A stretch of 63,979 nucleotides of DNA, counting the filler, from NCBI GenBank assembly GCA_964501035.1. It is 4 parts of 4 records of this genome, joined end to end, with 100 filler letters (N's around TTAATTAATTAA, not from the genome) between each part and the next. Parts side by side here need not be neighbours in the genome. Positions count along the whole stretch, not along the records: positions 1 to 20,766 come from CAZCRK010000023.1; 3 more parts are not named here. One strand, 5' to 3'. How positions within the stretch are numbered: the stretch's first letter is position 1; every line of letters starts with the position of its first letter. Positions 1,721 to 62,070 of this stretch are shown piece by piece. Below the pieces are notes generated by a model. That model searched no databases. It was not told the DNA's origin and worked only from the letters and a program-made list of their open reading frames with translations. The position numbers were made by a program, and so were the translations under genes.

Positions 1721-3952
1721 TTAAATACTACCAAATTTATAAACCATAGATAAATAAAAAGTTCGTTGGTCTTGTTTCTCATAATTATAAACTTGTCGCT
1801 CACCATCACCTGAATCGTAACTCAAATTTGATTCAAAAATATCGTTATCTAATAAATCAACTCCCTTAAATGTAATACGTAAGTGATCATCTAGAATTGA
1901 TAGTTGGTATGCAAAGTCTAGTACAAATTTTCCATTTTCCCATTGATATCCCTGTGGCGACTCTTGTTTTGACTTATAGGTTCCATTAATTTCAAATTCT
2001 CCAAAGTTTTGTGTTTTGTAAGATGCAATTAACCTACTGTGTCCGCCTTTAGTAATTCCATTTAATTGAGAGTTGCTGGCTTCTTTGGTTTCCAATACAT
2101 AATAATTTCCAGTAAGTCTTAATTCAACATCACGAAATGGATCAAGTTTAATCAAACCTTCAACCCCATTTAATATTCCTGACCCTGAATTTTCAAAAGA
2201 ATAAAATGGATTTAATTCATCAATATTTTCTACCCATTGAATAGGATCTTGTATGAAATGATTATACGAAGTTAAATCAAACTTTACGTTATTTATTGTC
2301 TTCGTTACTCCAAATTCAATCAAATTAACAAATTCAGGTTCTAGGTATGGATTACCGATTGTATCAGTTATAGAAAAACTATCAATTCGTGGGGTAGGAT
2401 CCAACTGTTTTGCACTGGGTCTATTAACCCGACTTCCAAAACTAGTTCTAAACTGTGTAAATGGGTTTAGTGAATACGTAAAATGTGCAGAAGGATATAG
2501 TTTAGAATAATTTCCGCTGATATTATCTATTTTTGTGTTTACCCATTCATATCTTAAACCTAGTTTAACATTTGCTCGTTCGTTCCATCGAAAAGAAGTT
2601 AAGCTATACAACGCATAAATGTCTTCATTAAATACAAAAACATCATCATTTTGTTGTTTATCAAAAGAATTTAACCGTCCTTTGAAACCAGTTTCAACAT
2701 GAATATCATTAACTTTAGTTCGATAATCTAAAGTAAGTACTTTTCTGTCCTGAATAATAGAACCATCAGTAGTAACCAAATGGTCTGTTAATTCTTGAGA
2801 TTCATTTTGAACATCATGAGAATATTCAGCATCCAAGGCACTGTATTTATTAAAGGAATTATAAGATCCAATTCCAAATACATGTGCATCAATTTCATTA
2901 GAAAACAATGTTTCATCTCCAGTATTTAGGGATTTATCAATACTACCATTATTTTTAATCAAACTACCTTCTATAGTAAAAAGATTATTTTTTGTGAAGG
3001 AATGTTTAATACCACCATTATAATAATTCAATTTAGAATTTCTAATATTGGTACTAGTAACTGAGGAATTTTCTAAAATATATTCGTGGATTGAATTTCC
3101 AGAATGTTCTGCCTTTTCGTAGTTTGTTTTTGCAAACAAGGTTGTGTTTGGTAATCGATAACTAAACGAAGAACCCATATTAAATTTATTCGTATTTCCT
3201 GCATTAACTGTGACTTCACCATTATACCCACTTATCTCTTCATCTTTTAGAACGAAATTGATTATTCCAGTCATCCCATCTGGATCATATTCCGAAGAAG
3301 GGTTTGTAATGATTTCTACACTCTCTATCATAGAAGCAGGAACTGGAACTGAAACTGCATTTGTTGATCTGTCTGTTCCTAAAATGCCTGTCCGCTTTTC
3401 ATTGACTAATACTGAAACATTGGTTGAGCCACGAAGTGAAATGGTGCCATCAGCTCCCACTTCAACTCCAGGGATTTTTTTAATTACATCACAGCATGTT
3501 CCGCCTGACGTTGCTTTATGGTCATCTAAATTAAACACTTTTTTATCTGCTTTAACTTCCAGCATTTTCTTTTGTGCAGTAACATTGACTTCTTCGCCTT
3601 CTAAACTACTTTGTTCAATAAAAATATCGCCAAAAGTCTTTTCAGGGTGGTTCTGATTACACAGCTCAAATGGAAGGCTCCAAAATGAATCAAAACCTAT
3701 AAACTTAACTACTATTCGATAGTTACCTTCAGGAACATTGTGAAATGCAAAATATCCTTCATTATCCGTCATTTGTCCCAACACGATTTTCTCATCTACC
3801 GAGCGAATAAGGGTGACTGTTGCAAATTCAACTGGACCCATCGTTCCGGTTTGCTTAACTGTGCCGTTAACTTTAGCTGCATAGATTAAATTTGTAAAAA
3901 TGGATAAAATTAGAATTGCAATAATTCTTGAAATTTTATTTTTTAAAAGCAT
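1721..3952 (-). CDS. TonB-dependent outer-membrane receptor (carboxypeptidase-regulatory-like N-domain, plug, beta-barrel)
   Basis: Signal peptide; plug motifs IKKIPGVEV, ISLRGS, IEIITNPSSEYDPDG.TGIINFVLK; GNPYLEPE; C-terminal aromatic strand YKF. Confidence 0.88.
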   Translation of the reverse strand: MLLKNKISRIIAILILSIFTNLIYAAKVNGTVKQTGTMGPVEFATVTLIRSVDEKIVLGQMTDNEGYFAFHNVPEGNYRIVVKFIGFDSFWSLPFELCNQNHPEKTFGDIFIEQSSLEGEEVNVTAQKKMLEVKADKKVFNLDDHKATSGGTCCDVIKKIPGVEVGADGTISLRGSTNVSVLVNEKRTGILGTDRSTNAVSVPVPASMIESVEIITNPSSEYDPDGMTGIINFVLKDEEISGYNGEVTVNAGNTNKFNMGSSFSYRLPNTTLFAKTNYEKAEHSGNSIHEYILENSSVTSTNIRNSKLNYYNGGIKHSFTKNNLFTIEGSLIKNNGSIDKSLNTGDETLFSNEIDAHVFGIGSYNSFNKYSALDAEYSHDVQNESQELTDHLVTTDGSIIQDRKVLTLDYRTKVNDIHVETGFKGRLNSFDKQQNDDVFVFNEDIYALYSLTSFRWNERANVKLGLRYEWVNTKIDNISGNYSKLYPSAHFTYSLNPFTQFRTSFGSRVNRPSAKQLDPTPRIDSFSITDTIGNPYLEPEFVNLIEFGVTKTINNVKFDLTSYNHFIQDPIQWVENIDELNPFYSFENSGSGILNGVEGLIKLDPFRDVELRLTGNYYVLETKEASNSQLNGITKGGHSRLIASYKTQNFGEFEINGTYKSKQESPQGYQWENGKFVLDFAYQLSILDDHLRITFKGVDLLDNDIFESNLSYDSGDGERQVYNYEKQDQRTFYLSMVYKFGSI

Positions 3953-3974
3953 GATTGTCTCCTAATAATTTGAA

Positions 3975-4763
3975 TTAATGGCTATGATGTTCATTTTCAC
4001 CATGTTGATGGTGGTCATGATGTTCATCATTGTGATTATGTTGAATTGTATCTTCTTTTTCAACGGGTATTTCTTTATGTTCTATTTCTACAGAACTCTC
4101 TTCAAAATTAAAATATCCATTTAACTGAAAAATTAATAAGAAGATACCAGCCATTATCAATAATTGATTTGTTATTTTTGTAATACTTAGTGAGTATTTC
4201 CTCAGGAGCAATAAAATGGGAAAAGCAATCCCTAATGCTAGTATTTGACCAACCTCTACACCCGCATTAAAAGAAAGTATCTTGGAAAGTAAATGGGTAT
4301 GACCTAACTCAATTTGTTGCAATCGAGTCGATAACCCAAACCCATGAATGAGTCCAAAAATTAATACCATTACTACTTTATTCGGTGCTTCAATTGAAAA
4401 CCACTTATTGAAACCATCAAGGTTTTCAAATCCTTTATAAACAACACTGAATGCTATCACTGCATCAATCAAATAATAATTTGCATTTATCTCATAAAAT
4501 GTAGCAAAAACAAGAGTAATACTATGTCCAATTGTAAATGCAGTTATGAACTTTACAATATCCTTAAACTGTGTTAAAAAGAATATTACACCTATCAAAA
4601 ACAGAATATGATCATAACCAGTAACCATATGTTTTGCACCAAGGTAAAAATAGTCTAAAAGTCCACCTTGCACCATTTCTGTTTTATCAGATTCAGATAC
4701 ACCATGTGCAAAGATTAAGCCGGGTGTAAAGATTAAAGAAAGTTTTAATAATAAGTGTTTCAT
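3975..4763 (-). CDS. HupE/UreJ-family metal (Ni/Co) transporter with His-rich tail
   Basis: AHG after signal, GYDHILF, FTIGHSITL, FGLIHGFG, FNAGVEVGQ; tail HNHNDEHHDHHQHGENEHHSH. Confidence 0.88.
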   Translation of the reverse strand: MKHLLLKLSLIFTPGLIFAHGVSESDKTEMVQGGLLDYFYLGAKHMVTGYDHILFLIGVIFFLTQFKDIVKFITAFTIGHSITLVFATFYEINANYYLIDAVIAFSVVYKGFENLDGFNKWFSIEAPNKVVMVLIFGLIHGFGLSTRLQQIELGHTHLLSKILSFNAGVEVGQILALGIAFPILLLLRKYSLSITKITNQLLIMAGIFLLIFQLNGYFNFEESSVEIEHKEIPVEKEDTIQHNHNDEHHDHHQHGENEHHSH

Positions 4764-4886: not shown

Positions 4887-5306
4887 TTAAACGATTAAAA
4901 CTGTAGTTTTTATATCGGGAGGAATAGAATTGGTATTAACCTCAACTTTAATAAAAATAGGTTGAAGTTTTAATTTAAAATCATTAGTTGAAACATATTG
5001 AATCAATTCATTATCAATAAATTTATAACTTGTTGAATTTATTACAAAAGCTAAGTCAGGAGTGTAATTCCATAGATTGATATCAATGCAATTCTCACAA
5101 TCATCTTCATGTGTATCTTCTTTAGGTGTTGGAACTTTACAAGAAATGTCGCATCCAGCTTCGATATTTATATCACCATCGGTTTCAAAACATAAAACTG
5201 GTGCTTTGATTCCGCTTTGAGTTATTATACCAAAGCAAAATATCCACACTAAAAAGTTATTGATTGTTTGTAATCTTCTTGATTTCACTAATTCAATATA
5301 ATACAA
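4887..5306 (-). CDS. Small Cys-rich hypothetical protein, possible metal-responsive leader (start may be GTG at 5288)
   Basis: Hydrophobic N-terminus, VLCFETDG, CxxxC, CxxCxD, C-terminal IPP..TTVLIV; directly upstream of metal uptake genes. Confidence 0.6.
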   Translation of the reverse strand: MYYIELVKSRRLQTINNFLVWIFCFGIITQSGIKAPVLCFETDGDINIEAGCDISCKVPTPKEDTHEDDCENCIDINLWNYTPDLAFVINSTSYKFIDNELIQYVSTNDFKLKLQPIFIKVEVNTNSIPPDIKTTVLIV

Positions 5307-5325
5307 AACGTGTTACTTGTTCCAA

Positions 5326-5360
5326 TGAAAATAATTTGTAACCTATTCTAATCATTATCA
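5326..5360. promoter_or_regulatory. Possible Fur-family boxes in divergent intergenic region
   Basis: TGAAAAT-A-ATTTGTA (5326-5340) and TTCTAAT-C-ATTATCA (5346-5360), partial matches to the 7-1-7 TGATAATnATTATCA box. Confidence 0.3.
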
Positions 5361-5370
5361 TCCAAAATTT

Positions 5371-5583
5371 ATGAAACAGATTACTAATTTACTTTATTCT
5401 TATAAACTACAACTAATAAGTTTAGTGCTTGGCGGTACAGCTGGTTATGCCTTTTATTATTTTATAGGATGTAATTCAGGTCACTGTATGATTACGGGAA
5501 ATCCATTTGTAAGTACAATTTATGGAATGGTATTAGGTTTAGTTTGGACGTGGCCTAATAAAGCAAGAAAGGCAAAGAAATGA
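5371..5583 (+). CDS. Small membrane protein, DUF6132-like
   Basis: GGTAGYAFYYFIGCNSGHCMITGNP (GCxxGxCxIT motif between two TM helices). Confidence 0.75.
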   Translation: MKQITNLLYSYKLQLISLVLGGTAGYAFYYFIGCNSGHCMITGNPFVSTIYGMVLGLVWTWPNKARKAKK

Positions 5584-5966
5584 AATATGGTTATCAACGT
5601 AAATTGAATCATGATTTTGATCACGTGGATGCAACAATACGTGAAAAACTTCAGGAACAAGGGTTTGGTATAGTGACAGAAATTGATGTTCAAAGCACAC
5701 TTAAAGAAAAAGTGAATATTGATTTTAGAAAATATAGAATTTTAGGCGCATGCAATCCTCCGTTAGCACATCAAGCACTTACTCATGAACTCGCAATTGG
5801 TTTATTATTGCCCTGTAATGTAGTTATTTGGGAAAATAACGATAAATCGGTTACAGTTTCAGCAATTGATACTCATGCAATGATGTCGATAACTGGAAGA
5901 GACGATATGGATGAAATGGCGAACCACGTAAACAGCTTACTACAAAAGGCAATCGATAATTTATGA
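5580..5966 (+). CDS. DUF302 domain protein
   Basis: GFGIVTEIDV, YRILGACNP, IGLLLPCNVV motifs; ATGA overlap with upstream gene. Confidence 0.9.
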   Translation: MKYGYQRKLNHDFDHVDATIREKLQEQGFGIVTEIDVQSTLKEKVNIDFRKYRILGACNPPLAHQALTHELAIGLLLPCNVVIWENNDKSVTVSAIDTHAMMSITGRDDMDEMANHVNSLLQKAIDNL

Positions 5967-6127
5967 ACGACTGGATACAATTTTTAGTTATTTATATTGT
6001 TTGGGTGTTAATGAATAGGTACTTGTTTCCTAAAATGGGCATACCAACGTGAGACAACCCGCAACCTCAGGTGAGGAAACCAATTTCATTAATTAAAAAA
6101 GAGGAAAATACGAATGCCAATGTATAA
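5963..6127 (+). CDS. Candidate 54-aa membrane-anchored selenoprotein (TGA 6050-6052 read as Sec); 29 aa if TGA is a stop
   Basis: ATG overlaps DUF302 stop (ATGA); MNDWIQFLVIYIVWVLMNRYLFPKMGIPT-TGA-DNPQPQVRKPISLIKKEENTNANV-TAA; fills the gap to the next gene; SECIS-like hairpin follows. Confidence 0.6.
6065..6076 (+). promoter_or_regulatory. Putative bacterial SECIS hairpin 1
   Basis: CCTC-AGGT-GAGG starting 12 nt after TGA 6050-6052; GGT at +18 to +20. Confidence 0.55.
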
Positions 6128-6311
6128 ATTTAGGTGTAAGACATGCGAAAAAGAATTCGATAAACTGGTCTTTGGATTTGATTCTTCAAATGTTGAATGT
6201 TCGCATTGTAATTCTAAAGATATTGAAAAATTGTTATCAGCACCTAGTTTGGGACAACCGCAAACTTCCTCTGGAGGATGTGGTGGTGGATCAGGATTTT
6301 CATGAGGATAA
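6114..6311 (+). CDS. FmdB-family zinc-ribbon protein, candidate penultimate Sec (GFS-U-G-stop); ends at 6305 if TGA is a stop
   Basis: MPMYKFRCKTC..ECSHC..EKLLS; Gly-rich tail GGCGGGSGFS then TGA GGA TAA; GAGG RBS. Confidence 0.75.
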
Positions 6312-6316
6312 GGAAG

Positions 6317-6333
6317 GAAATTTGGTGAATTTC
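6317..6333 (+). promoter_or_regulatory. Putative bacterial SECIS hairpin 2, overlapping the next start codon
   Basis: GAAATTT-GGT-GAATTTC starting 11 nt after TGA 6303-6305; GGT at +19 to +21. Confidence 0.55.
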
Positions 6334-7035
6334 AAAAATATAATTGTTTTAGTGTTAGGGTTGAGTATTATGGCGTGCGATTCAGAAAAATTAGATATTC
6401 AAGTAAATGTCCAGGGTAGATTAATGGATATTATGCATAATGGTGCACGAGATGGAATTGTACACATTGCTGATTTGTTAGGTGATAATGTTTATGGACT
6501 AGGTCCACTTGAAGGTTTAAACGGTGAGTATATCATCATTGATGGAAAACCTATTCTAACTCGTAGTGTAGATAGTAAGACTGCAAATATTGTAAAAGAC
6601 TATTCTACAGAAAAAGCATTGTTAGCTGTTACTGCTACAGTTCAAGATTGGAAATCAGTTGAAATTTCAAACCACTCCAGTATTGCATCGCTTGAAACGG
6701 AAATTCAAGAAATAGCTAAACAGTCAAACATAGATACAGAAAAGCCATTTCCATTTATGATTAAAGGAAATTTGGGTAAAGTAAATTGGCATATAATTCG
6801 ACCTTCTAAACCAGGTGGTTCACACGATGAACATTTAGCTGGAGCTTGGAAAGAAGAAGTGGATTCGATTGATGCTCAAATTTTGGGTTTTTATTCAAAC
6901 AAACATCATAGAATATTTACACATCATGATTCAAACGTTCATATGCACGTAGTTATAACCGAAAGTGGGTTATCTGGCCATATTGATGCTCTTGAAATTG
7001 GTGAAAAAGTAGAACTCTATTTGCCTGTAAAATAA
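6325..7035 (+). CDS. Acetolactate decarboxylase-like lipoprotein
   Basis: GTG start after AAGGAAGG; lipobox SIMA-C; YGLGPLEGLNGE, GFYS..H..FTHH..HMH..GHID metal-binding motifs. Confidence 0.7.
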   Translation: MNFKNIIVLVLGLSIMACDSEKLDIQVNVQGRLMDIMHNGARDGIVHIADLLGDNVYGLGPLEGLNGEYIIIDGKPILTRSVDSKTANIVKDYSTEKALLAVTATVQDWKSVEISNHSSIASLETEIQEIAKQSNIDTEKPFPFMIKGNLGKVNWHIIRPSKPGGSHDEHLAGAWKEEVDSIDAQILGFYSNKHHRIFTHHDSNVHMHVVITESGLSGHIDALEIGEKVELYLPVK

Positions 7036-7072
7036 CTTTTTAAGCCAGCCCCTTCTGATGTAGATTATTTTT

Positions 7073-7438
7073 ATGTCAGAGGATAAAATCCCATCAAATG
7101 ATGAAGAATTATTGCAAAATTGCATAGTTGAAACATTCCGCTCCAGTGGAAAAGGTGGACAACATGCAAATAAAACTGAATCGGCTGTAAGAATTACACA
7201 TATCCCAACGCAAATTTCTACAATTTGTCAAGATGAACGCAGCCAGTTACTCAATAAAAAGAAATGCATTATACAATTACGTGAAAAATTGATAAAGTTT
7301 TACGAAACGCCTAAAAAACGAATTCCTACAAAAAAACCTTATAAGGCTAAAGAAAAAGTTCTTGACACAAAGAAAAAACAATCTGTCAAAAAGCAATTAC
7401 GCAAAAAAATAGGATTTGATAATATTAATGAAGAATGA
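7073..7438 (+). CDS. arfB: Peptidyl-tRNA hydrolase ArfB/YaeJ-like ribosome rescue factor
   Basis: [21 protein letters not shown], basic tail KKRIPTK. Confidence 0.8.
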
Positions 7439-8183
7439 ACTTTTATCTTATCAGATTCTCGGTTATTCTGCAGGAATTCCATCGGAAAATAGAGGGGTAA
7501 GCTGTACTATTATTAGTACACATCAATCTGATTTCATGATTGACTGTGGTGAAGGCTCTTACTTGCAGTGGAAAAAGCATGGATACTCATGGAAGCGACT
7601 CAAATCGATATTTATTACCCATTTACATCCAGATCATTCCGGAGGGTTGGTGAATTTATTGTTTTACAGAAAACTCCTTGGTGTGTTAACACCTTTAACA
7701 ATTTATGGTCCACCAAATTTACAAGAATATTTAGAAAAATCATTTGAATTTCAAGGAGTAAATATAGAATATGATTTACATATTTATTCAATTGATGAAT
7801 TAGATTCTACCAAAATCGAAAGTGAAATATTTTTTACAACTACGCAGTTAGAGCATAAATTGCCGTGTTGGGGGATTAAAATTGAATCATCTAATAATTC
7901 AATAGCATTTTTTACAGATACACTACCAATCCAGCAAACTATTGATTTAGCTCAAGGAGTTGATGTGCTTATACATGAGGCAACTTTTATGGATAATGTT
8001 AAAGATTTACCAAAAAAAACTTTTCATACCACTGTCCACGAAGCTATGGATTTAGCAGATAAAATGAATGTAAAACGTCTCATTTTAACCCATTTTAGCC
8101 AACGGTACTCTGATAACCAGTTAAAAACGATTCATTATCACGGTGTACCTTGTGTAGTATTTAATAAAAGGCAATCTTTCTAA
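7428..8183 (+). CDS. rnz: Ribonuclease Z (metallo-beta-lactamase fold)
   Basis: [26 protein letters not shown]. Confidence 0.85.
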
Positions 8184-20766: not shown

Positions 20767-20866
20767 NNNNNNNNNNNNNNNNNNNNNNNNNNNNNNNNNN
20801 NNNNNNNNNNTTAATTAATTAANNNNNNNNNNNNNNNNNNNNNNNNNNNNNNNNNNNNNNNNNNNN
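20767..20866. other. Artificial contig linker
   Basis: 44 N, TTAATTAATTAA, 44 N. Confidence 0.98.
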
Positions 20867-41544: not shown

Positions 41545-41644
41545 NNNNNNNNNNNNNNNNNNNNNNNNNNNNNNNNNNNNNNNNNNNNTTAATTAATTAA
41601 NNNNNNNNNNNNNNNNNNNNNNNNNNNNNNNNNNNNNNNNNNNN
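41545..41644. other. Artificial contig linker
   Basis: 44 N, TTAATTAATTAA, 44 N. Confidence 0.98.
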
Positions 41645-61970: not shown

Positions 61971-62070
61971 NNNNNNNNNNNNNNNNNNNNNNNNNNNNNN
62001 NNNNNNNNNNNNNNTTAATTAATTAANNNNNNNNNNNNNNNNNNNNNNNNNNNNNNNNNNNNNNNNNNNN
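61971..62070. other. Artificial contig linker
   Basis: 44 N, TTAATTAATTAA, 44 N. Confidence 0.98.

Follow-up and report, generated by a model that had tools for sequence, protein, structure and literature searches.

A probable family of small single-helix membrane selenoproteins, encoded through an in-frame TGA in Marinisomatota and other bacteria

The locus and its reading frame

We analysed a stretch of 63,979 nucleotides (nt) from the assembly GCA_964501035.1, hereafter the window, and in particular a short gene at 5963-6127 which, judging from its sequence and that of its relatives, very probably encodes a 54-residue membrane protein with a single helix, into which selenocysteine (Sec, U) is inserted at UGA codon 30 under the direction of a downstream hairpin. 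The window consists of four contigs (C23, C24, C25 and C143) of this 1.87-Mb assembly, joined by N at 20767-20866, 41545-41644 and 61971-62070; the peptide locus lies on the first contig, where the contiguous DNA covers 1-20766 only. The source genome most likely belongs to the phylum Marinisomatota (SAR406). Several peptides from genomes labelled Neomarinimicrobiota, Marinimicrobia or Fidelibacterota were identical to peptides from our sample of that phylum, which points to Marinisomatota as the phylum, and we take Marinisomatota, SAR406, Ca. Neomarinimicrobiota and Fidelibacterota to be synonyms.

The genes and features of the locus are listed in Table 1. The peptide ATG (5963-5965) shares an ATGA overlap with the stop of the DUF302 gene, and the frame then runs through MNDWIQFLVIYIVWVLMNRYLFPKMGIPT (29 codons), the TGA at 6050-6052, DNPQPQVRKPISLIKKEENTNANV (24 sense codons) and a TAA at 6125-6127. 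The hairpin, taken here as the apical part of a presumed bacterial selenocysteine insertion sequence (SECIS), has the arms CCTC (6065-6068) and GAGG (6073-6076) around the loop AGGT. The first-pass annotation had described this layout (an ATG over the DUF302 stop, a TGA at codon 30, 24 further codons and a hairpin 12 nt on), and all of it is present in the sequence. The same annotation held that the frame fills the gap to the next gene and that it is missing from ordinary gene calls, and both statements were borne out: the tail runs 14 nt into the start of the FmdB-type gene (6114), and the listing of open reading frames (ORFs) under translation table 11 yields only a part of 29 amino acids (aa) at 5963..6052, which appears only when the minimum length is set to 25 aa.

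Table 1 Genes and features at and around the peptide locus, with positions in the window.
Feature	Position	Strand	Basis
TonB-dependent receptor and HupE/UreJ-type protein with His-rich C-terminal tail, divergent, upstream	1721-4763	-	Pfam
Small membrane protein of the DUF6132 family, two helices, GCNSGHC motif; first in the cassette	5371..5583	+	Pfam PF19628, E 3e-5, 24.0 bits vs cut-off 23.2
DUF302 protein gene, TGA stop overlapping the peptide ATG	5580..5966	+	Pfam PF03625, E 2.9e-26
Probable mini-selenoprotein gene, 54 codons and TAA: N-terminal hydrophobic helix, FPKMGIPT-U, hydrophilic tail	5963..6127	+	Translation with TGA as U, homologues, alignments
In-frame TGA, codon 30, probably read as selenocysteine	6050..6052	+	Invariant column; true cysteine codons in relatives
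Apical hairpin of presumed bacterial SECIS, CCUC-AGGU-GAGG, 12 nt after UGA	6065..6076	+	Covariation across homologues
FmdB-type zinc-ribbon protein, 63 aa, start inside the end of the read-through frame	6114..6305	+	TIGR02605, E 7.1e-13; PF09723, E 6.7e-13
Acetolactate-decarboxylase-family protein, after the cassette	6319-7035		PF03306, E 1.3e-14, below NCBIfam equivalog cut-off
RF-1-domain protein, 121 aa, ArfB-like peptidyl-tRNA hydrolase	7073-7438		PF00472, E 7e-25

The TGA codon and its cysteine counterparts

In a six-frame search of 60 relatives we found 10 clear homologues of the peptide, our own copy included, each with a TGA right after [ST]-T at the same position. The eleventh match (genome G058, E 0.04) and the weaker ones were inspected and are not members of the family. 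A profile of nine of these homologues, from which the frameshifted copy of genome G003 was excluded, was searched over 401 sampled genomes of the phylum and gave 68 matches (E ≤ 2.2e-4) in 66 genomes. All 68 contained exactly one in-frame TGA, at that column, and none had a TAA or TAG at the Sec codon. When 66 of the sequences were aligned the Sec codon was the sole invariant column, with W14, K24, G26 and T29 conserved in at least 90%, and the consensus of this subgroup was M-x-D-[hydrophobic helix with W]-N-R-x-x-L-P-K-x-G-V-P-T-U-x-x-P-Y-x-P-Q-x-E-E.

We also scanned the whole collection, at one genome for each species, with the DNA pattern P-K-M-G-[VI]-P-T-(TGA/TGC/TGT)-x-x-P. The codon was TGA in 38 of 38 hits, 36 of which were counted as family members; the other two (L116 and L129) were taken as chance hits because they have no upstream hydrophobic helix. 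According to the record titles, the carriers belong to Ca. Neomarinimicrobiota/Marinimicrobia/Fidelibacterota, Deltaproteobacteria, Desulfobacterales, Myxococcota, Spirochaetes, Acidobacteria/Bryobacterales, KSB1, Ignavibacteriaceae and Caldimicrobium.

Relatives with cysteine (Cys) in place of Sec were found among database proteins. The profile gave 978 matches (E ≤ 0.001) among 1.84 billion cluster representatives at 50% identity. Among the best 150 of these 978, 100 end exactly at T29, while the remainder carry Cys (n = 41), Trp (n = 6), Arg (n = 2) or Glu (n = 1) at the following position. The proteins ending at T29 are gene calls cut at the TGA, and the six Trp forms suggest that the TGA was translated as Trp by some pipeline. 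The Cys forms in this set mostly read T-C-M-S-G-A-C. A metagenome scan queried with 12 closely related Cys forms returned 80 loci, with the peptide readable in 78; in these 78 loci of the MSGAC subgroup the codon was TGC in 47, TGT in 11 and TGA in 20, and the flanks were the same in all. One such pair is FGVQT-U-MSGACTRVPR beside FGIQT-C-MSGACSRPAQ, and the tail also matches across the Sec/Cys divide between an Acidobacteria record (U-SVPHPRRSAR) and database proteins (C-AVPQPRRSAR). In an alignment of our own peptide with 11 Sec and 9 Cys forms, P23, G26, T29 and the U/C column were invariant. A column shared by Sec and Cys, with conserved flanks on both sides, is the classical criterion for Sec and shows that the sequence past the TGA is translated. 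Outside Marinisomatota, a Cys follows 2-6 residues past the Sec in 14 of 18 Sec forms (U-x(1-5)-C). At two of the metagenome loci (L177 and L185) the Cys-form peptide (T-C-MSGAC) is joined by a linker to a whole thioredoxin domain, which has the motif WCGPC.

These matches also bear on whether there is a gene here at all. The frame is very short and lacks a library family match, as would a chance opening in an intergenic spacer, but 978 cluster representatives among 1.84 billion proteins and conserved-motif homologues in several phyla exclude that explanation, and the probability that we leave to it is next to nil.

The way in which the genes are packed is consistent with translation of the longer frame. 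The first in-frame stop after the TGA falls within -17 to +15 nt of the FmdB-type ATG in 59 of 63 loci; the remaining two frames reach 24 of 63 and 4 of 63. The TGA stands 41-195 nt ahead of that ATG (median 70). A long frame which stops at the FmdB-type ATG is the packing to be expected if ribosomes usually reach the end of the frame.

The TGA could instead be an ordinary stop that closes a 29-residue membrane peptide, with the hairpin serving the FmdB-type gene as a regulatory element or a site of ribosome binding. This 29-aa product is what gene callers give, and it is where the 100 cut proteins mentioned above end. However, an ordinary stop would have to be TGA in 68 of 68 and 38 of 38 cases although TGA closes only about 20% of long frames, and it would have to share its column with true Cys codons in relatives where MSGAC is conserved after both forms. 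The position of the in-frame stop, which abuts the FmdB-type ATG in 59 of 63 loci, likewise argues for a frame that is read to its end. What remains to be weighed for this alternative is the hairpin itself.

The downstream hairpin, the selenocysteine machinery and the decoding of UGA

A contiguous stem of at least 4 base pairs (bp) which starts 8-15 nt past the UGA was found in 62 of 64 distinct Marinisomatota sequences. The hairpin consensus is YCCUCA-GNN-UGAGGA, with loops that mostly begin with G (GGT 17, GTC 10, GGC 8 and GTG 5). Covariation was tested on an unfitted MAFFT alignment of 65 sequences over a six-pair helix: 85.4% of the cells were paired, against 44-56% when the 3' arm was slid by 1-3 columns. 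Five of the six pairs had changes on both sides, and 23 double-change cells were observed compared with 4.4 in shuffles (0 of 500 shuffles as high). The covarying stems include CCUCA/UGAGG, UCUCA/UGAGA, GUCCA/UGGAC, AGUCA/UGACU, CAUCC/GGAUG and AUCCCC/GGGGAU. It is from this comparison across homologues that the hairpin of our own copy draws its significance.

In the MSGAC subgroup, where Sec and Cys genes can be set side by side, we looked for an unbroken stem of 7 bp or more, starting 8-18 nt past the codon and closing a loop of 3-6 nt. Of the distinct genes, 8 of 10 with TGA have such a stem, against 4 of 53 with Cys (Fisher: P = 5e-6). Raw folding energy did not differ between Sec and Cys genes (both about -13.7 kcal/mol; Mann-Whitney: P = 0.48); the two groups are separated only by folding z-scores (P = 0.002) and by the positioned-stem count. 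The apical loop lies 16 nt from the UGA in the peptide gene and 17 nt from it in the selD gene of the same genome, and we presume a likeness to the E. coli fdhF loop, which has GGU in the loop at a similar distance.

A hairpin that goes with TGA and not with TGY is hard to square with an ordinary stop. Its 3' arm, UGAGGA, does resemble a Shine-Dalgarno sequence and stands about 12 nt before the FmdB-type ATG in the shortest loci (L040 and L041), and in our own copy the hairpin is weak, both of which would suit a ribosome-binding structure. Yet the distance of 41-195 nt between the TGA and the FmdB-type ATG means that the hairpin is no fixed ribosome-binding site, and taking the codon, the Cys forms, the packing and the hairpin together we consider termination at the TGA to be very improbable.

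All four genes for Sec insertion were found in the genome, on contigs outside the window. In profile searches selB scored 375.2 bits (cut-off 242.25), selA 523.1 bits (cut-off 267.9) and selD 378.8 bits (cut-off 125); selA and selB are adjacent on one contig, and selD has one in-frame TGA of its own. A tRNA-SeC with the anticodon tca, the product of selC, was identified by ARAGORN. Within the phylum sample selA was present in 304 of 401 genomes and, when the two tables were cross-read, in 64 of the 66 genomes which bear the peptide. The remaining two carriers, G234 (93% complete) and G354 (70% complete), both have a selD with an in-frame TGA, which suggests that they are Sec users whose selA and selB were left unassembled. 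The two families that are nearly without selA yielded no peptide match at E ≤ 2.2e-4 (f7, 1 of 37; f26, 0 of 33); the single match counted in f7 (G223, E 0.0047) misses this threshold and reads through a TGA and a TAA. It may be added that G234, in which selA was not found, has two full-length selD copies (on its contigs C18 and C5), each with an in-frame TGA.

Reading of the UGA as Trp, Cys or Gly, through near-cognate decoding or an altered code, would be in keeping with the Trp found at this position in 6 of the best 150 of the 978 database matches. The code is standard, however, as translation table 11 gives long ORFs all along the window and TGA closes about 20% of the open frames of at least 200 codons in the genome (TAA 64%, TAG 16%). 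The Sec machinery is complete and the genome's own selD also has an in-frame TGA, the aligned residue in relatives is Cys, which is the usual counterpart of Sec, and a positioned hairpin follows the codon. We regard decoding as another amino acid as extremely improbable.

Several observations weigh against the Sec reading and were set against this evidence. Because the genomes that carry the peptide are related, the counts cannot be taken as independent, and no Cys form was found in the phylum sample of 401 genomes. The tail of our own copy (DNPQPQVRK...) deviates from the subgroup consensus xxPYPQVEE, and in Marinisomatota the tail after the Sec is of low complexity (E 17.5%, K 11%). The frame after the TGA is open for 13-34 codons in all 67 distinct sequences, but 46 of the 67 also have an opening of 13 codons or more in frame +1, which makes openness of the frame weak evidence by itself. 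One homologue, that of G003 (L010 / L050), has a 1-nt frameshift in a run of T near its N-terminus, which is either an assembly error or the mark of a decaying copy. As for the RNA, our own hairpin has only 4 bp (-4.8 kcal/mol, z = -0.8 vs shuffles) and alone is no better than chance, z averages only -1.17 across 64 homologues, and a search of 5000-7500 against Rfam turned up no SECIS family even at E ≤ 10, with snoRNA and sRNA matches at chance level only. The stem also overlaps the P-Q-x-E-E codons, which entangles the constraints on protein and RNA.

With these points allowed for, we hold with high confidence that the peptide is a genuine Sec-containing protein, and only slightly less firmly that it is made in the full form proposed above, as a 54-residue single-helix membrane protein with hairpin-directed Sec. 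UGA codon 30 would then be decoded as Sec by the SelA/SelB/SelC/SelD system of the cell, and this decoding would be directed by the short stem-loop that begins 12 nt past the UGA. The first-pass annotation had already proposed a TGA-encoded Sec in a small membrane protein, and the invariant TGA, the Cys relatives, the hairpin and the Sec machinery all support that proposal. The points which it had named as able to refute it came out in its favour: no homologue has a TAA or TAG in place of the TGA, which is kept in 68 of 68 matches of the phylum sample and in 38 of 38 pattern hits, Cys forms exist and align to the same column, conservation continues past the codon (T-[U/C]-MSGAC in one subgroup and an xxP..Q.EE tail in the other, with the frame ending at the next ATG in 59 of 63 loci), and selA, selB, selD and tRNA-Sec are present in the genome.

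Gene neighbourhoods, possible function and relation to known families

The cassette in Marinisomatota is well conserved. By tblastn, the 68 loci have a DUF6132 gene upstream in 64, a DUF302 gene immediately upstream in 55 and an FmdB-type zinc ribbon downstream in 61; a motif search placed an FmdB-type gene downstream in 63 loci. Within these 63 FmdB-type sequences C8, C11, C29, C32, C56 and G61 are invariant, and after a Ser/Gly-rich linker they end in C-x(3-5)-G-F-[ST], which is invariant or nearly so (...GGCGGGSGFS in our own copy). A C-x-[ST]-G-x-C motif was found by regular expression in 41 of 68 upstream regions, and in our own DUF6132 copy it stands as GCNSGHC between hydrophobic segments.

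On seven long contigs, not all of which have each of the genes, the wider Marinisomatota cluster comprises an HD/GAF protein, a CitMHS/TrkA_C permease, a thioredoxin, an extracytoplasmic function (ECF) sigma factor, a zf-HC2 anti-sigma factor and sometimes a rhodanese, then the cassette, followed by MatE and a pterin-4a dehydratase. On one contig a 66-aa ORF between the anti-sigma and DUF302 genes (L145:6722-6919, minus strand) has a weak match to DUF1858 (E 1.5e-5, below the cut-off), a family which is listed among selenoprotein families (PMC13188914).

In other phyla the neighbours include ArsR regulators, thioredoxin, YgaP-type membrane domains and FmdB, as well as a zf-HC2 anti-sigma factor with a YgaP-type domain together with a cytochrome-bd-like/cytochrome-c protein, and an AhpD-like CMD protein. 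Rhodanese-YgaP, a fusion of metallo-beta-lactamase (MBL) fold and rhodanese, TauE and a pyridine-nucleotide-disulfide oxidoreductase are found as well, and look like a set for sulfide detoxification. One genome report that came upon DUF302 within sox clusters speculates on a role for it in trithionate oxidation (PMC5037610).

On average the peptides carry a net charge of -1.0 ahead of the helix and of +2.0 over the 12 residues that precede the Sec. By the positive-inside rule, this acidic N-terminus and basic segment suggest that the Sec is on the cytoplasmic face beside the membrane; the N-terminus is accordingly predicted to point outward, with the NR..PK segment and the Sec in the cytoplasm and near the membrane. 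Anatomy and neighbourhood together point to redox chemistry of thiols or sulfane sulfur at the membrane, a role to which we would give a little less than an even chance. In such a role the membrane-tethered selenol, which in relatives forms part of a U/C-x4-C pair, might accept sulfane sulfur or cycle via a selenylsulfide, and once oxidised it could be reduced and recycled by thioredoxin. It may work alongside the neighbouring small Cys proteins of the DUF6132 or YgaP type.

Two observations speak against this functional scheme. In Marinisomatota, 44 of 65 distinct tails are without any Cys, so that the idea of a redox pair requires an outside partner there, and neighbourhoods vary by phylum, with FmdB following the peptide in 0 of the 66 MSGAC-subgroup loci that have enough flank. 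For Marinisomatota the invariant C-terminal Cys of the FmdB-type protein would be a candidate for the resolving thiol that most of the peptides there do not have; pairing of the Sec with this Cys specifically is doubtful in our estimation.

The close packing of stop and start, which overlap or adjoin in 59 of 63 loci, could also mean that both products of the UGA are deliberate, with the codon serving as a selenium gauge that couples FmdB synthesis to the selenium supply and the peptide being of lesser importance. Bacterial Sec insertion competes with termination, and an FmdB-type gene stands after the peptide gene in 61 of 68 loci of Marinisomatota as well as at L131 and L137 in other phyla, both of which would suit a gauge. 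Against it, the peptide sequence itself is strongly conserved (W14, K24, G26 and T29 in at least 90%), the Cys forms need no gauge and yet keep the same protein, and the MSGAC subgroup never has FmdB after the peptide. We judge that the codon matters chiefly as a gauge to be improbable; this explanation is compatible with a Sec-containing protein and is no exclusive alternative to it.

An elaboration which combines these ideas would be a two-part, membrane-tethered selenium-sulfur switch, in which Sec insertion gates FmdB through stop-start coupling, the Sec forms a selenylsulfide with the FmdB Cys, and a sulfane-sulfur or oxidant signal is passed to the ECF sigma/zinc anti-sigma module. We think this somewhat more doubtful still than the Sec-FmdB pairing taken alone. 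If it were true, the switch would be a bacterial signalling device built on a 54-residue selenoprotein, and one reason for the retention of the Sec machinery in marine bacteria of the SAR406 type.

We compared the peptide with known families to determine whether it had been described before. Neither our own peptide nor 66 Sec members and 20 Cys forms gave a meaningful Pfam or NCBIfam match (E ≤ 1 for the members), in line with the first-pass annotation, which had been unable to assign it to a named family. A search of the ESM Atlas with one Cys form led to a nearest cluster named 'hypothetical protein' with no Pfam family, and a cluster look-up of 10 proteins returned no source name for any of them. 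A FeoB-associated Cys-rich membrane protein, to which the peptide bears a possible resemblance, was absent from the matches of the 66 Sec and 20 Cys forms at E ≤ 1. A 2026 review lists 119 prokaryotic selenoprotein families in its Table 1 (PMC13188914), and there is no small single-helix PT-U protein among these 119. The NCBIfam models built for recent families, those of the deep-Sep families DG, DW and DF (PMC12013277) included, do not match the peptide. No description of the family or the cassette was found in the literature, where the supplements of two surveys (PMC2398784, PMC12013277) might list unnamed candidates. The peptide family therefore appears to be undescribed in the literature and libraries covered. 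The novelty lies in the protein family and in how the protein is built; the UGA is decoded in the way that is usual for Sec in bacteria.

The eukaryotic-type proteins SELENOK and SELENOS are small, with one N-terminal helix and a single Sec near the C-terminus in a hydrophilic, probably disordered cytosolic segment. The bacterial peptide shares the small size, the single N-terminal helix and the single Sec, placed in a hydrophilic and probably disordered segment that would likewise be cytosolic, a likeness in general architecture only. There is no sequence relationship (no meaningful Pfam match for 66 members at E ≤ 1), and the two differ in that the Sec of the peptide lies about 10 residues past the helix with a tail of 13-34 residues after it, and in that the bacterial SECIS is within the coding frame.

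With the known prokaryotic families of the U-x-x-C and C-x-x-U types the peptide family has in common the recoding of UGA via a downstream hairpin, the existence of Cys homologues and, in most members outside Marinisomatota, a second Cys near the Sec. It differs from them in its spacing, which is U-x4-C and not U-x2-C, and in that Sec forms outnumber Cys forms (among the best 150 of 978 matches, 100 ending at T29 and 6 with Trp vs 41 with Cys).

DUF6132 and YgaP-type (DUF2892) proteins, one or other of which neighbours the peptide in many loci, are likewise small membrane proteins with a Cys pair beside a helix. The GC-x-[ST]-G-x-C of DUF6132 is very similar to the T-C-M-S-G-A-C of the peptide Cys forms, a likeness of motif only, which hints at shared chemistry or ancestry. 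In contrast to the peptide, both have two helices and their own Pfam models, neither of which the peptide matches. As for FmdB (TIGR02605 / PF09723), its members are reported to be selenoproteins in rare cases: the Global Ocean Sampling study gives 807 homologues with Cys and two sequences with Sec, the latter in a CxxU motif (PMC2398784). The neighbouring gene at our locus is a member of this family, but all four of its ribbon cysteines are Cys, and the selenoprotein is the separate peptide upstream.

Because gene callers drop the gene or cut it to 29 residues, the family is missing from annotation and from selenoproteome counts, a gap which concerns at least 978 representatives at 50% identity in several phyla. 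Within the libraries and literature covered, this would be the first small single-helix bacterial selenoprotein found. Marinisomatota (SAR406) is an abundant and almost uncultured ocean lineage, and 66 of its 401 sampled genomes have the peptide. The neighbourhoods furthermore tie DUF6132, DUF302, FmdB-type ribbons and YgaP-type domains to thioredoxin, rhodanese, ECF sigma/anti-sigma and sulfide-detoxification genes, which provides a testable context for each of them.

Some further genes around the locus deserve mention. The divergent TonB-dependent receptor and HupE/UreJ-type protein upstream look like a metal-uptake pair. Downstream of the cassette, an acetolactate-decarboxylase-family gene is present in 8 of 68 loci. 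The RF-1-domain gene stands two genes downstream of the probable UGA-recoding gene; it is conserved at that place in 2 of 68 loci, and only in the relative of the same genus.

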